Shown in pieces: positions 1,682 to 5,347 of a DNA stretch of 20,837 nt (position 1 is its first letter; each line of letters begins with the position of its first letter). The position numbers and the translations under genes are program-made. This stretch comes from a bacterium (GTDB taxonomy: Bacteria; Patescibacteriota; Microgenomatia; Daviesbacterales; UBA10151). Where the stretch lies: assembly GCA_021786105.1 (NCBI GenBank), contig JAJYNW010000001.1:1-20837 (forward strand), given 5' to 3'. A model generated the notes under the pieces. It searched no databases and was not told the origin of the DNA. It saw only the letters and a program-made list of their open reading frames with translations.

Positions 1682-2416
1682 ATGACTATCAGCAAAATCG
1701 AGGCACTACAATTAGAACGCTACAATCACCTAGAAGGCGACCATTTTGGTAGGTACGGAACAGGCCCAAACGATATGGCAATGAAGAGATTTAAAGTCAA
1801 ACTGATCAAGGAGATGTTCAGTGATGTAAAGGGAGCACCAATATTGGATTTGGGGGCTGATGAGGGCAGCGTGGTAGGAGCACTTTCAGACAACGGCAAT
1901 ACAGGAATCAGTATCGACATAGCTTATCAAAGATTATTAGGCAACAGTCGACTAGGAAAAGGGTTATTTGTTTGCTCCAGAGCACAAGAGCTTCCTTTTT
2001 CAGAAAGTTCTATTGGCGGTATTTGTGCGTTTGATATTATCGAGCACCTTGATAAGAAAGACCCTGTAAAAATGATGGAAGAGATTTACAGAGTCTTGGC
2101 ACCAGGCAAAAAAGTTATTCTAGCAACCACTAATACAAGTTGTTTGGCAAGGAACATGAGGAGATTAATTGAACCAGACAGAGTTGTTTCAATAGCCGAG
2201 CATGCCAATGAAATGTCCTACCAAACAGTTAGACAATTATTTAGGCAAACCGGATTTGTTAATATTCACGCTCGCGGAGCTGGAATTATTCCCGGGATGA
2301 GGAGACTTCAATGGTTTTTGCCTTTTAATAAGCTTCATAAATGGGATATTGCTATCAGTGAGCGGTTTCCTCAAATATCTCCTGAAATTTTTATTGCGGC
2401 CGAAAAACCTCAGTAG
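1682..2416 (+). CDS. Class I SAM-dependent methyltransferase (Methyltransf_11-like)
   Basis: Motif I ILDLGADEG, LPFSESS, IEHL, EIYRVLAPG. Extended -10 TGGTATAAT at 1660-1668. Confidence 0.9.
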   Translation: MTISKIEALQLERYNHLEGDHFGRYGTGPNDMAMKRFKVKLIKEMFSDVKGAPILDLGADEGSVVGALSDNGNTGISIDIAYQRLLGNSRLGKGLFVCSRAQELPFSESSIGGICAFDIIEHLDKKDPVKMMEEIYRVLAPGKKVILATTNTSCLARNMRRLIEPDRVVSIAEHANEMSYQTVRQLFRQTGFVNIHARGAGIIPGMRRLQWFLPFNKLHKWDIAISERFPQISPEIFIAAEKPQ

Positions 2417-2438
2417 CCTATTCCCTAACCTAATCAGT

Positions 2439-2467
2439 TTGACTTTTATCTCATAGTATGCTAAAAT
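2439..2467 (+). promoter_or_regulatory. sigma70-type promoter of the VanW-like gene
   Basis: TTGACT(2439-2444)-17 bp-TAAAAT(2462-2467) with TG extension. Confidence 0.6.
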
Positions 2468-2500
2468 ACTTAGCTTACAACCTTTTGGTTGCATGAACAT

Positions 2501-3172
2501 ATGATCAAAAAATCAGTTCAAACCCTGATCATCTTTCCCCTAACCTTAGGTTCTCTGCTGGGACAAAATCACAACCAAAATTTAATCCCGCTGCCTTCGA
2601 GGGAACATTTGGTGGCTCAAAAAGAGATGCCGCTTAATGACCGCTATTCCAATGGCTTTGTCAACGACGTTTTCAGGGATAATATCCTGTTAAATCTTGC
2701 CTATTTAAGCGGCCGGGTTACCAATGCTTCCGATATTAAATGGGATGAAATTACCAAACCGTTTACTTTTGAATTCAAGCTGGAACCAAATAAAACTTTT
2801 GCCTTCCATTCTGATGTGGAAGATCAATACAAAGCCAGCTTGGTCAAAACTACCAATGCCCACTTTAATGCCCAGGAAGGGTTTAAGACAGACGGGTATT
2901 TATTTGGGGACGGGGTTTGCCACTTAGCCTCCTTAATCAACTGGACAGCCAAAGAAGCTGGGTTGTCAGTAGAAGCACCTACCAGTCATGATTTTGCCAA
3001 TATCCCGGATGTGCCTAAAGAATACGGGGTGTCAATTTATTCAAACCCGGGCTCAACCGGTTCCAACGCCCTGCAGAATTTATATATCACTAATAACAAA
3101 TCTAAACCTGTCGCTTTTAGGTTCCAATACCAAAACGACAAACTCAAAGTATCAGTGGTTGAATTAAATTAA
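2501..3172 (+). CDS. VanW-family exported protein
   Basis: GDGVCHLASLINWTAKEAGL resembles the VanW GGGxCQxxSxL motif. N-terminal hydrophobic signal. ATG at 2501 preferred over TTG at 2489. Confidence 0.75.
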   Translation: MIKKSVQTLIIFPLTLGSLLGQNHNQNLIPLPSREHLVAQKEMPLNDRYSNGFVNDVFRDNILLNLAYLSGRVTNASDIKWDEITKPFTFEFKLEPNKTFAFHSDVEDQYKASLVKTTNAHFNAQEGFKTDGYLFGDGVCHLASLINWTAKEAGLSVEAPTSHDFANIPDVPKEYGVSIYSNPGSTGSNALQNLYITNNKSKPVAFRFQYQNDKLKVSVVELN

Positions 3173-3281
3173 TCTATAATTCAAAGACGACTTAAGCTGG
3201 CAAGAACCACCGCTTTATGGTTTAGAAAACTCTAATCTATCACTTCCCCAATTAAATGGAAAATCGACAGCCATGATTAAC

Positions 3282-3318
3282 TATACAAAACCTACAACGA
3301 TCGTTGCATAAATTGTCA
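3282..3318. repeat. 37-bp palindromic direct repeat, copy at the stop codon of the PaaX/Cas2-like gene
   Basis: TATACAAAACCTACAACGATCGTTGCATAAATTGTCA, 31/37 identical to 3825-3861. Its last 3 bases are the gene's TGA. Confidence 0.85.
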
Positions 3319-3825
3319 TCGGCCGGTATTTTCAGATTCAATTACCAAAACCCAGTCTGTAATATCAAGCTCTTTTATCAATTTTCGCAGTTTTTCCGTC
3401 ACATTTTTCTTAGATGCCCAAACACTTTTTTGCCAGGGTTGAAAATCCCACAATTTCAACCGCCTTCTTAAAATATCACGCACTAGCCTCTTGTTTTCCG
3501 GAATATCAAATACCACGATTCGCCACTTTCCATCCCACTCAATTTCATCATCAGATTTGGAAAAAAGCAAAAATTCCCTGCCAGCCTCTGTCAGCTTTAG
3601 GATAATTTTGTTTGTATCTTTCTCCGGAACTTTTTCAATAAACCCCTTTTGCCGCAGTCTTTGCAAGGTTTGAGCTAGCGTCGATTTTTTCAAAGGATAT
3701 TCCCAACCGCTGCCATAAGCATAATATCCTGGATGGTACATGAAATCCTCCAGCCTAACATAACCATCAACCGCCTTTTCCAAAGCCAACAGCACTAATT
3801 TCCCAATTGTTTCTTTCTTACTCAT
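3316..3825 (-). CDS. PaaX-like protein: winged HTH plus Cas2-like (ferredoxin-fold) domain
   Basis: wHTH segment TLQRLRQKGFIEK...LKLTEAG, then WDGKWRIVVFDIPE...R..LR..L...F...QKSVW typical of the PaaX central/Cas2-like domain. ATG at 3825 preferred over TTG at 3831. Confidence 0.85.
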   Translation of the reverse strand: MSKKETIGKLVLLALEKAVDGYVRLEDFMYHPGYYAYGSGWEYPLKKSTLAQTLQRLRQKGFIEKVPEKDTNKIILKLTEAGREFLLFSKSDDEIEWDGKWRIVVFDIPENKRLVRDILRRRLKLWDFQPWQKSVWASKKNVTEKLRKLIKELDITDWVLVIESENTGR

Positions 3826-3861
3826 ATACAAAATATACTACGATCGTTGTATATTTTGTCA
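3825..3861. repeat. 37-bp palindromic direct repeat overlapping the promoter and start codon of the PaaX/Cas2-like gene
   Basis: TATACAAAATATACTACGATCGTTGTATATTTTGTCA. Bases 3828-3859 form a 32-bp palindrome with one mismatch. Minus-strand TTGACA (3862-3857) and TAGTAT/TATATT -10 candidates overlap it. Confidence 0.85.
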
Positions 3862-3904
3862 ATAAGTCTTTACAAGCCCTTATGCTCTACTCTAATATGG
3901 AACT

Positions 3905-5347
3905 ATGCCAGATAACGGAGTCATACTTGACAATCACCTTGAAGAACATCATGACCATGAAACTATTTATTTCCCATCAGGTTTTCTTTGGGGCGCATCC
4001 ACCAGCGCCTATCAGGTAGAAGGCAATAATACCAATGCCGACTGGTGGTATTGGGAACAAACTCACCAACCGCCGGAAAAATGGTCCGGGCAAGCCTGTG
4101 ACCAATATAACCGCTATGAGCAGGACTTTGATCTGGCCAAGCAGCTGGGCCATAATGCCCATAGGTTATCCATTGAATGGTCTAGGATTGAACCAAAAGA
4201 AGGTGAATTTAACCAGGCAGAAATCGATCATTACAAGAAAGTACTCAAGTCTTTGAAAGACCGTGAGCTAACTGTTATGTTAACCTTGTGGCACTTTACC
4301 CTGCCGAAATGGGTGGCGGATAAGGGTGGCTGGGAGTCGGGCCAGACCCCTCAATTTTTTGAAAGGTTTGTCAAAAGAATCGTGCCGGAGATTGGGGTTT
4401 TTGTGGATTTTTGGATCACTTTGAATGAGCCGGGGGTATACATTTATGAAACTTATATCGAGCGGGCCTGGCCCCACTCGAAAAAAAGCTGGATTGGCCA
4501 GGCTAAAACATTTTTAAACCTGACCAGTGCCCACAAAAAAGCTTATAAATACCTGCACTCGGTTTATCCGGTCGGCAAACCGGTCGGCATCGCCAACAAC
4601 ATCCTGTCTTTTGAGTCATATCACAAGCATTCTGTTACCGAGCAGGTGGCCGTTTCTCTAAACGACCTGTTTGCCAATCACCTGTTCTATTTTTTTACTC
4701 ACGGCACTCACGATTTTTTAGGAATCAACTACTATTTTCATGTCCGCTTTAGAAGCGGCAGTTTTATAGCTGAGCGCCGGGATATGATGCAAACTCACGA
4801 TATTTCTGATATGGGTTGGGAAGTTTATCCGGAAGGAATTTATCAGGTCTTAACTGATTTGGCAGATGACATACCTATATATATTACGGAATGCGGCATT
4901 GCCTCCACCAATGACGACAGAAGAAACCGCTTCCTGATTTCTTATTTACAAGAGGTAGCCAGGGCCATCAAAGGCGGAGTGAATGTCCGGGGGTTTTTCT
5001 ATTGGTCTTTGCTTGATAATTTTGAATGGCATTTAGGCTTTGAACCCAGATTTGGCCTGGTGGAAGTAGATTATGAAGTTCTTGCCAAAGAGCAAGAGCT
5101 GCGTAAGTCGACTACGTCGCCTTATAAAACCCAAAGCAGAAAAATCAGACCTTCAGCCTTAGTGTATAAAGATATTATTCAAAATAACGGAATTCCGCAT
5201 TCCCTGCTGCGCTTTATCGGGCATACTGTTCGGGCGGAGGAAGTATTGGAGAAAAGGTCCAAGGAAACGGAAAAAGAAATGATTCAGCCAGAAGTTTTGG
5301 GAAAAGGGCAAAAAGAAATACCAGAAGAGACAGAAAAAACTGCATGA
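3905..5347 (+). CDS. Glycoside hydrolase family 1 (beta-glucosidase-like)
   Basis: FPSGFLWGASTSAYQVEG, RLSIEWSRIEP, acid/base TLNEP, nucleophile YITECG, YWSLLDNFEW, RFGLVEVDY. Confidence 0.95.
   Translation: MPDNGVILDNHLEEHHDHETIYFPSGFLWGASTSAYQVEGNNTNADWWYWEQTHQPPEKWSGQACDQYNRYEQDFDLAKQLGHNAHRLSIEWSRIEPKEGEFNQAEIDHYKKVLKSLKDRELTVMLTLWHFTLPKWVADKGGWESGQTPQFFERFVKRIVPEIGVFVDFWITLNEPGVYIYETYIERAWPHSKKSWIGQAKTFLNLTSAHKKAYKYLHSVYPVGKPVGIANNILSFESYHKHSVTEQVAVSLNDLFANHLFYFFTHGTHDFLGINYYFHVRFRSGSFIAERRDMMQTHDISDMGWEVYPEGIYQVLTDLADDIPIYITECGIASTNDDRRNRFLISYLQEVARAIKGGVNVRGFFYWSLLDNFEWHLGFEPRFGLVEVDYEVLAKEQELRKSTTSPYKTQSRKIRPSALVYKDIIQNNGIPHSLLRFIGHTVRAEEVLEKRSKETEKEMIQPEVLGKGQKEIPEETEKTA
5071..5125 (+). 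repeat. 51-bp in-frame double-hairpin insertion in the GH1 gene
   Basis: TTAT direct repeats at 5071 and 5122. Hairpins GTTCTTGC/GCAAGAGC (5078-5099) and TAAGTCGAC/GTCGCCTTA (5104-5124). Confidence 0.6.

Follow-up and report, generated by a model that had tools for sequence, protein, structure and literature searches.

Why would the stop codon of a repressor gene coincide exactly with a second copy of the site that the repressor binds? The question is raised by a small gene, here named mini-PaaX, in a member of the bacterial order Daviesbacterales whose genome comprises 1.04 Mb in 26 contigs (40% G+C, 92% complete). The stretch analyzed, here referred to as the window, is contig C18 with its 20,837 nucleotides (nt). 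Mini-PaaX is a single minus-strand open reading frame (ORF) of 169 amino acids (aa; P0001) located at 3316-3825. It is bracketed by two direct repeats, R1 (3282-3318) behind the gene and R2 (3825-3861) in front of it. The two are identical at 31 of 37 positions (84%), share the centre ACGATCGT and start 543 bp apart, with nothing but coding sequence between them. This confirmed, at the same coordinates, what a first-pass annotation of this DNA had described. The final bases of R1 (TCA, 3316-3318) are the TGA stop codon of mini-PaaX read on the minus strand, and the first base of R2 (3825) is the A of its ATG. R2 contains a palindrome of 32 bp (3828-3859) with 15 of 16 arm pairs complementary; the palindrome of R1 is weaker (3285-3316, 11 of 16). 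Based on the comparisons presented here, we consider it fairly probable that mini-PaaX is a self-bracketed autorepressor with R1 as a second selected site in cis.

The genome encodes six paralogues which are 51-57% identical to the window protein. All six carried a private palindrome upstream of the ATG and again directly after the stop codon. These palindromes differed between the paralogues: ATTACGATCGTRAT was found at the paralogue on contig C25, TTCTCGGCCGAGAATAT at C6a, ACAAATGTCCTCCGGCCGTGGTACA at C22, ACATTAAT-N-ACGGCCGT-N-ATTAATGT at C6b and a CGGCCG-centred form at C13. As a control, the upstream and downstream flanks of all 927 ORFs of at least 100 aa with full flanks were compared by local-alignment score. 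A score of 35 or more was reached by 12 of the 927 ORFs, and five of these 12 were mini-PaaX paralogues. The remaining seven were two RAYT-like genes, one IS200-type TnpA gene, two Fic-family genes, one four-helix-bundle gene and one SDR gene; a large secreted protein was next in the flank-similarity list (score 38).

The analysis was extended to 80 homologous loci of about 3.5 kb each from public genomes. In total, 77 could be scored, since one had no start codon and two had short flanks. A flank score of at least 30 was found in 35 of the 77 loci and in 8 of 453 shuffled pairs, for which the upstream flank of one locus was aligned to the downstream flank of another. With a threshold of 24 the numbers were 49/77 and 32/453, respectively. 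Because all six paralogues carry the pair and the loci exceed the shuffled pairs so clearly at score 30, the bracket is not due to chance. The earlier suspicion that a second copy at the stop codon is no accident was thus borne out among the paralogues and across the family. In most close relatives the upstream palindrome is centred 19-20 nt before the ATG and the downstream one about 15 nt after the stop codon, and the TGA stop doubles as the start of TGACA in the downstream copy. The family itself is large: we obtained 5,446 clusters at 50% identity with E values of 1e-10 or below, mostly of 160-230 aa. Of 301 genomes sampled from the phylum, 75 contained family members, in numbers of up to 11 per genome.

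Some individual copies deserve mention. The C13 paralogue (C13:10435-10866) is shortened to 143 aa with both palindromes retained, and the last 12 residues of the family C-terminus are encoded in another frame at C13:10841-10876; it is probably a frameshifted copy. In the closest public orthologue, L011 (1501-2010), an in-frame stop codon and a 21-nt insertion inside the downstream palindrome were present. L061 (1489-2121) carried an insert of about 40 codons with five stop codons within the gene.

Mini-PaaX consists of an N-terminal winged helix (residues ~1-93) followed by a PaaX_M/Cas2-like domain of the type b-a-b-b-a-b (~97-165). The latter matched Pfam PF20803 PaaX_M ('PaaX protein central Cas2-like domain') with an E value of 1.1e-20 over residues 96-167, and the N-terminal half gave weak winged-helix matches (HxlR, PadR and MarR-like). 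An AlphaFold2 (AF2) model based on 75 family members had a predicted local distance difference test (pLDDT) value of 79.8, with 88-93 across most of residues 101-160. Its strands (101-106, 129-132, 135-138 and 159-164) and helices (110-125 and 143-152) follow the order of the Cas2-like ferredoxin-like b-a-b-b-a-b fold. The top Foldseek match in the PDB was PaaX of E. coli W (8a39; E 6e-5, TMq 0.55). Comparison by hhalign with E. coli K-12 PaaX resulted in a probability of 93.8% (E 1.7e-7, residues 49-165), and with E. coli Cas2 in 0.1%, that is, no detectable relation. In a PDB profile search 8a39 reached only E 0.11, and a PDB sequence search with the Cas2-like domain alone returned nothing meaningful. 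The Cas2 hidden Markov models matched weakly over residues 101-153 and below their cut-offs (PF09827, 20.3 vs 23.8 bits, E 6e-4; TIGR01573, 20.4 vs 24.5 bits). The PaaX equivalog TIGR02277 (NCBIfam) likewise gave 30.1 bits against a cut-off of 264.55. The C-terminal domain PaaX_C (PF08223), which binds phenylacetyl-CoA in PaaX, had no match in the protein, which ends at residue 169, or anywhere in the 92%-complete genome. Mini-PaaX is a truncated two-domain relative of PaaX, neither PaaX proper nor Cas2. A homodimer prediction scored 0.31 with a reference mark of 0.42 and was used for neither side.

To relate protein and palindrome we compiled a table of 83 rows, comprising the 77 loci and the six own paralogues and including L011 and L061, whose frames contain stops; sites were called by arm complementarity alone. 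Two main palindrome cores were found, CGATCG and CGGCCG, and they followed residue 133, the K of W-Q-K-S-V-W. With lysine or arginine at this position the central pair was AT in all of the 32 called upstream sites and in 24 of 27 called downstream sites, the others being GC, AG and GT. With glutamine it was GC in 16 of 20 upstream sites (AC or GT in the other four) and in 11 of 13 downstream sites, and AT in none at either end. Asparagine accompanied the asymmetric core CGACCG. Among all combinations of 169 residues and 16 half-site positions, K133 with position 1 ranked first (z 18.7 over shuffles that ignore relatedness; mutual information 0.75 vs 0.07). High scores were also obtained for D117 and L119 with positions 5-6. 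Raw mutual information was dominated by hypervariable loop columns, and shuffle-normalised scores were used instead. A quick tree of the 83 proteins, built with column 133 omitted, required at least 13 changes of the residue, at least 11 of the upstream core and at least 9 of the downstream core.

Switches were also seen among close orthologues. At the same locus, the window, L147 and L148 carry K and CGATCG in both copies, and L149 and L167 carry Q and CGGCCG in both copies. The K-type L044 (CGATCG in both copies) and the Q-type C22 paralogue (CGGCCG in both copies) share 85% identity, and L053 (K, CGATCG) and C6b (Q, CGGCCG) share 77%. In three switches of this kind the downstream core switched along. 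It is the lack of exceptions together with these switches that makes the case for co-variation. The likeness of R1 and R2 is not simply a result of gene conversion, since each copy keeps its own position-specific arms across species (upstream ACAAAATAT..., downstream ACAATTTAT...); L015 is an exception with 32 identical bases between its copies. The co-variation indicates that R1 and R2 are likely both cognate sites of the encoded protein. The pairing of K/R with A·T and of Q with G·C is the opposite of the usual major-groove code, and a minor-groove reading at the dyad by residue 133 would fit. The first-pass annotation had expected a palindrome pair for each homologue which co-varies with the recognition helix of the winged helix-turn-helix (wHTH). 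The pair and its co-variation were indeed found; the helix was not the place, as the top residue, K133, belongs to the Cas2-like domain.

The features of the locus are the following (window coordinates, strand where applicable):

2489-3172, plus strand: VanW-like gene, convergent neighbour (Pfam PF04294, E 3.7e-7)
3173-3281: 109-nt spacer from the VanW-like stop codon to R1, part of the stretch missing from the empty sites of relatives
3282-3318: R1, downstream repeat and likely second binding site; degenerate palindrome whose first three gene-sense bases are the TGA stop codon
3316-3825, minus strand: mini-PaaX gene, 169 aa (P0001), described by translation, Pfam, AF2, Foldseek and hhalign
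3825-3861: R2, upstream repeat and likely operator; its 32-bp palindrome has its centre 19 nt upstream of the ATG, the distance seen in most relatives
3835-3862, minus strand: mini-PaaX promoter from the promoter scan (-35 TTGACA at 3862-3857, -10 TAGTAT at 3840-3835)
3869-3898, plus strand: divergent GH1 promoter-like site (TTTACA, 18 nt, TAATAT; 9/12 matches), back to back with the mini-PaaX -35
3905-5347, plus strand: GH1 beta-glucosidase-family gene, divergent neighbour and possible regulated target (Pfam PF00232, E 1.5e-77)

The profile scan named a methyltransferase, the VanW-like and GH1 genes, a PBP and otherwise unnamed ORFs as neighbours. No paa genes were among these scanned neighbours in the window, and no genome-wide paa search was made. 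In the region matching the spacer, relatives carry additional convergent ORFs. The window contained one tRNA as its only Rfam family.

The mini-PaaX promoter (TTGACA, 16-nt spacer, TAGTAT; 10/12 matches) was the top site of the promoter scan in 2900-4100, and the palindrome of R2 occupies the space from its -35 to its -10. The near-perfect palindrome over TTGACA and -10 had been pointed out before and is real. Given this position, autorepression of the mini-PaaX gene through R2 is likely. R2 is also close to the divergent GH1 promoter, at 6 nt from its -35. From the centre of R2 to the GH1 ATG the distance is 62 nt, a value shared by four of six carriers, and an effect on GH1 is therefore possible. 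Since the -10 of mini-PaaX stands just 9 nt before the ATG, its mRNA is probably leaderless or nearly so, judged from the predicted start. More generally, at mini-PaaX (3835-3825) and GH1 (3893-3907) the -10 hexamer lies 6-9 nt before the ATG without a Shine-Dalgarno sequence, as in most paralogues. Leaderless mRNAs may be common in this Daviesbacterales host genome.

What could R1 do behind the gene? When the 100 nt after the stop codon were aligned from nine orthologous loci, conservation ended about 36 nt after the stop in seven of them and the DNA beyond was unalignable. R1 is thus predicted to be a second cognate site, likely retained by selection. Its presence does not depend on which way the next gene points: of 74 loci that have a neighbour at up to 600 nt, 49 have it on the same strand and 25 in convergent orientation, and a bracket (score of at least 24) was found in 34 and 14 of these, respectively. 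In the proposed mechanism, mini-PaaX would bind the palindrome of 32-37 bp as a two-fold symmetric dimer, as the symmetry of the site and the example of PaaX suggest. The winged helices would read the outer ACAA...TTGT arms and the Cas2-like domain the central CGRYCG. Residue 133, which the AF2 model places at the tip of the b2-b3 hairpin, would contact the central pair, possibly in the minor groove. Binding at R2 would shut off the own gene. With the protein bound, R1 might stop read-through at the 3' end of the gene as a roadblock or insulator, and/or serve as a loop partner of R2 that tightens autorepression. These roles in cis are the ones we favour. The terminator scan predicted no terminator-like site in 2900-4100, and the rho model had no match above its cut-off in the 92%-complete genome (best 48 vs 509 bits, to an ATPase-subunit-like protein).

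Several observations weigh against this reading. At score 30, 42 of the 77 homologous loci had no clear downstream copy. L164 has an intact gene without the downstream site, so that R1 is not indispensable. L012 carries the core CGATCG upstream yet CGGCCG downstream. The z scores were derived from shuffles that take no account of relatedness. A test restricted to well-supported branches found agreement in 4/4 upstream pairs (p 0.125) and had just two pairs downstream, so that the formal tree test is weak for want of independent pairs. Furthermore, the unit was gained or lost between sister genomes. Palindromes of the same type are also found between convergent genes or inside ORFs, where the operator model does not predict them, and one of these, described below, indicates that they spread on their own.

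The last points lead to the main alternative explanation. Mini-PaaX and its repeats might form a selfish or mobile protein-repeat pair, comparable to repetitive extragenic palindromic (REP) sequences with their RAYT, or an excisable cassette. Here the Cas2-like domain with Asp107 would nick or process the palindromes, the flanking copies would be the ends of the unit and the solo palindromes its dispersed progeny. We regard this as unlikely, yet the evidence at the VanW/GH1 locus and elsewhere in the genome has to be weighed on both sides.

GH1 was present in 89 of 96 genomes of the taxonomic family, and the GH1 loci of 29 relatives were compared. In five of the 29, an orthologous mini-PaaX stands beside GH1, and one more (L145) has a copy 1.1 kb away. 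Ten relatives have VanW directly followed by GH1 at a distance of 0-71 nt without mini-PaaX, and in 13 neither gene was found within 1.5 kb or the contig ended. Empty sites of VanW next to GH1, as they had been expected for a cassette, thus exist; stable synteny would have counted against such a cassette and was not seen. The carriers are scattered on the GH1 tree. The carrier L147 has the empty-site genome L152 as its sister (99% support, short branches), and the carrier L149 pairs with the empty L154 at 93% support. The mini-PaaX unit is dispensable. The presence/absence pattern among close relatives speaks for a mobile unit.

However, the form of the empty sites is less favourable to it. 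A CGNNCG palindrome upstream of GH1 was present in all six carriers (window included) and in none of the 23 other scorable loci. The empty sites hold zero repeats, and this speaks against recombination between R1 and R2, because one copy would remain. The missing stretch also exceeds R1-gene-R2, and the empty sites keep the GH1 promoter motif TTTACA ... TAATAT. Among the assembled contigs of four sequencing runs, searched on 2400-4700, none bridged the locus without the gene or showed a circle junction. The junction of a 543-bp circle proposed in the first annotation therefore did not appear; this is a weak test and no evidence against excision, since rare forms would be invisible in such contigs. 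Contigs of these runs break at R1 (3273-3289), and others contain just the repeat of 37 bp or the conserved part that encodes WDGKW. Across 15 pairs, the identities of mini-PaaX and GH1 are correlated (r 0.78), as expected under vertical descent; in three pairs, on the other hand, mini-PaaX is far more alike (93-96%) than GH1 (79-86%), for instance 96% vs 86%, and this speaks for the mobile reading. The unit may have been lost or gained several times, or alleles may have been exchanged between relatives.

Two further details of the locus were noted. Over its first 10-15 residues, GH1 can be aligned with that of the window in five of six carriers (L145 counted) but in only two of ten empty-site genomes; the unit may be part of a presence/absence allele reaching into the 5' end of GH1. 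At the empty site of L154 (G080:C13:4784-4815) the TGA stop of VanW opens an inverted repeat with 13-bp arms (TGACAAACTGAAT ... ATTCAGTTTGTCA) and a 10-nt centre. Its outer bases resemble the mini-PaaX arms, but no second copy was present in that genome and it was taken as an ordinary hairpin.

The genome scan proposed earlier for further motif copies did reveal solo palindromes. Using the window pattern with up to three mismatches, five genomic places were found, both flanking copies included. Of 423 CGRYCG sites in the genome, 23 had at most five arm mismatches, and 11 of these 23 flank the six paralogues. The window-type palindrome occurs at four further places. The copy at C21:10788-10819 is 34/35 identical to R2 and lies between two convergent genes. 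At C15:5107-5138 a near-perfect 32-bp CGATCG palindrome (2 mismatches in 16 pairs) is situated in a 97-aa S26 signal-peptidase-like ORF, where it encodes IQKYHDRDIFV. At C8:4957-4988 one half is well kept in the loop-coding part of an O-antigen-ligase-like ORF, and C3:11300-11331 is located between a stop codon and the start of pth. Three solo copies of the C6b-type palindrome were also present. The C21 copy was missing at 22 orthologous loci of family relatives, none of which has a mini-PaaX gene nearby, and it is therefore a recent gain. Palindromes thus spread on their own.

Numbers and distribution again limit the idea of a selfish pair. Each type is represented by two flanking and about two to four solo copies only. 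No mini-PaaX relatives were found among the viral contigs and phage records searched. For the C8 copy a clean in-frame insertion was rejected, as its loop is just ~3 residues longer than in five of ten relatives, and a DNA similarity between the flanks of R1 and C8 was unconfirmed at the protein level. Apart from mini-PaaX, the families represented in this genome by more than one gene with repeated flanks are RAYT-like and IS200 transposases and Fic genes, which counts in favour of the mobile reading. Two RAYT-like genes and one IS200-type TnpA-like gene (C20:58066-58716, C26:8911-9555 and C23:7582-8013) are flanked by G+C-rich hairpins and serve as an internal positive control, showing that the flank test recovers protein-repeat pairs.

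The family-specific residues are similarly ambiguous. Mini-PaaX and E. coli PaaX have WDGKW in common, whereas the nearly invariant FDIPE and Q-x-S of the mini-PaaX family correspond to SEGL and A-P-S in E. coli PaaX. D107, E110, R113, R116 and Q132 are (near-)invariant in the family and different in E. coli PaaX, with D107 invariant across 75 sequences, and this speaks for the mobile pair. E110 follows three residues on at the start of helix 110-125, and with D107-x-x-E110 in this position of the model a structural role of D107 as a helix cap is equally possible as a catalytic one.

A more far-reaching version goes with these observations, to which we give little credence. Mini-PaaX and its palindromes might be a self-propagating protein-repeat system of the candidate phyla radiation (CPR) bacteria and the first readers of double-stranded DNA sequence with a Cas2 fold. 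Besides repressing its own gene, the protein would act on the palindromes. Nicking at the dyad near the paired Asp107, or recruitment of recombination, would let palindromes and whole site-gene-site units be copied, lost and re-targeted as the specificity switches. It would be a REP/RAYT-like system on a different fold, related as a free-living form to the half of CRISPR adaptation that handles repeats.

Returning to the autorepressor with a second site, R1 could alternatively be a second promoter-operator, duplicating the -35/operator/-10 of the gene itself, that drives and regulates a same-strand downstream gene or, in the window, an antisense transcript into the VanW-like gene. R1 has TGACA where R2 has TTGACA, and some orthologues have TATGAT, TAGGAT or TAGTAT at the -10 position. 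A same-strand downstream gene follows in 49 of 74 family members with a median gap of 85 nt, and two solo copies retain TTGACA (C14:25679 and C21:62444). In the window, however, R1 has TGTAGG at this position, and the promoter scan called no promoter there. The neighbour is convergent here and in L011-L014, and the downstream copy is about as frequent in front of convergent as of same-strand genes in the counts given above. Taken together, this makes a promoter function of R1 quite improbable.

We see hardly any room for the option, raised in the first-pass annotation, that R1 and R2 act as RNA, either as CRISPR-repeat-like hairpins for the Cas2-like domain or as an intrinsic terminator at the 3' end. 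The length of the repeats (37 bp), the weak Cas2 Pfam match and the good folding of R2 (z -5.8 and -5.2 on the two strands) would agree with it. But R2 lies upstream of the likely transcript start, and the transcribed copy R1 folds on the gene strand with a z of -1.45, 15 of 200 shuffles folding as well. Neither a terminator-like site in the scanned region nor an Rfam match was found at the locus. In line with the earlier description, the window contained neither cas1 nor a CRISPR-like tandem array, and a Cas1 match (PF01867) was absent from the whole genome. R1 has kept its likeness to R2 and not its self-complementarity, which fits a protein site on double-stranded DNA. Overall, the interpretation offered in the first-pass annotation is supported in part.

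That R1 is a functionless relic of family duplication, such as a promoter left from a lost tandem copy, is very improbable: the promoter region reappears as the repeat unit (TGACA ... TTTTGTAT), with the stop codon in the place of the -35, and L164 lost its downstream copy, but none of the 80 loci holds two mini-PaaX genes in tandem, R1 is kept in seven of nine orthologous loci beside unalignable DNA and its core switches with residue 133.

How does a self-bracketed autorepressor compare with known systems? PaaX is the phenylacetyl-CoA-responsive repressor of E. coli and Pseudomonas. Mini-PaaX resembles it (8a39, 3l09; PF20803, PF08223; TIGR02277) in its winged helix, in the same Cas2-like central domain behind it and in the WDGKW motif. 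According to PMC9493321, PaaX represses its own promoter at a site of two inverted hexamers 27 bp apart, and EcoPaaX recognises TGATTC(N27)GAATCA; a wide palindrome overlapping the own promoter is thus shared, in mini-PaaX as a predicted site. In contrast, mini-PaaX has no C-terminal ligand-binding domain (169 vs 316 aa), no paa genes among its scanned neighbours, and FDIPE and QxS instead of SEGL and APS. It also differs in having six paralogues, each with private sites, within a single 1-Mb genome, in the site at the stop codon and in the putative reading of bases by the central domain, as the co-variation suggests.

A promoter operator with a second cognate site some hundred bp away is known from lac O1/O2, gal OE/OI, lambda CI OR/OL and coliphage 186 CI. 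OR and OL of lambda bracket the repressor gene (cI-rexAB), and the downstream site of lac can act as a roadblock. The repressors of lac, gal, lambda and 186 form tetramers or higher oligomers. Mini-PaaX would resemble these in its two predicted cognate operators in cis, whose cores co-switch with residue 133. It differs from them in a second site exactly on the stop codon and in the arrangement site-gene-site as a family-wide rule with changing specificities. RAYT (Y1/HUH) genes are flanked by REP palindromes which their product presumably recognises, and they have solo copies and lineage-specific pairs. Mini-PaaX is likewise flanked by palindromes it putatively recognises, as judged from co-variation, and has solo copies. 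However, it is built of wHTH and PaaX_M without an HUH/Y1 fold, its palindromes are a handful instead of tens to hundreds, its upstream copy doubles as promoter operator, and no sign of cleavage or transposition was seen. With Cas2 (PF09827, TIGR01573) mini-PaaX shares the order b-a-b-b-a-b in the model, an Asp where b1 ends and a strand with the pattern Q-x-S-V-W; FDI and QKSVW presumably parallel the Cas2 motifs. Unlike Cas2, it stays below both cut-offs, is fused to a winged helix and has neither cas1 nor a CRISPR-like array.

In the openly accessible main texts searched, no paper on the mini-PaaX family or on the site-gene-site layout was found. A PaaX-type autorepressor with an auxiliary operator is of a known kind; a putatively base-reading Cas2-like domain, private specificities and the stop-codon site were not found in the papers searched. 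The genomes of CPR bacteria (Patescibacteria) are tiny and have few recognisable regulators, yet six mini-PaaX genes are present in one of them. If our reading is true, mini-PaaX would be a major unstudied transcription-factor family of these bacteria. It would have a simple recognition rule, residue 133 versus the central base pair, and would use a Cas2-type fold in sequence-specific DNA reading. Given its solo palindromes and its presence/absence polymorphism, the unit may also be linked to mobile repeat systems.

Other self-flanked genes of the genome were noted in the control. At C17:41796-42152, a gene for a 118-aa four-helix-bundle protein stands between two perfect 29-bp direct repeats, and its downstream repeat starts on its TGA stop with the same geometry as in mini-PaaX. 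The protein resembles the 23S rRNA intervening-sequence protein type. Two Fic-type genes (C14:2214-3317 and C22:3114-4121), whose products have DNA-binding-like C-terminal tails, are flanked by direct repeats as well, one pair being perfect with 26 bp and containing TTGCGCGC and the other imperfect with 44 bp. These Fic-type genes may represent another class of self-flanked genes.

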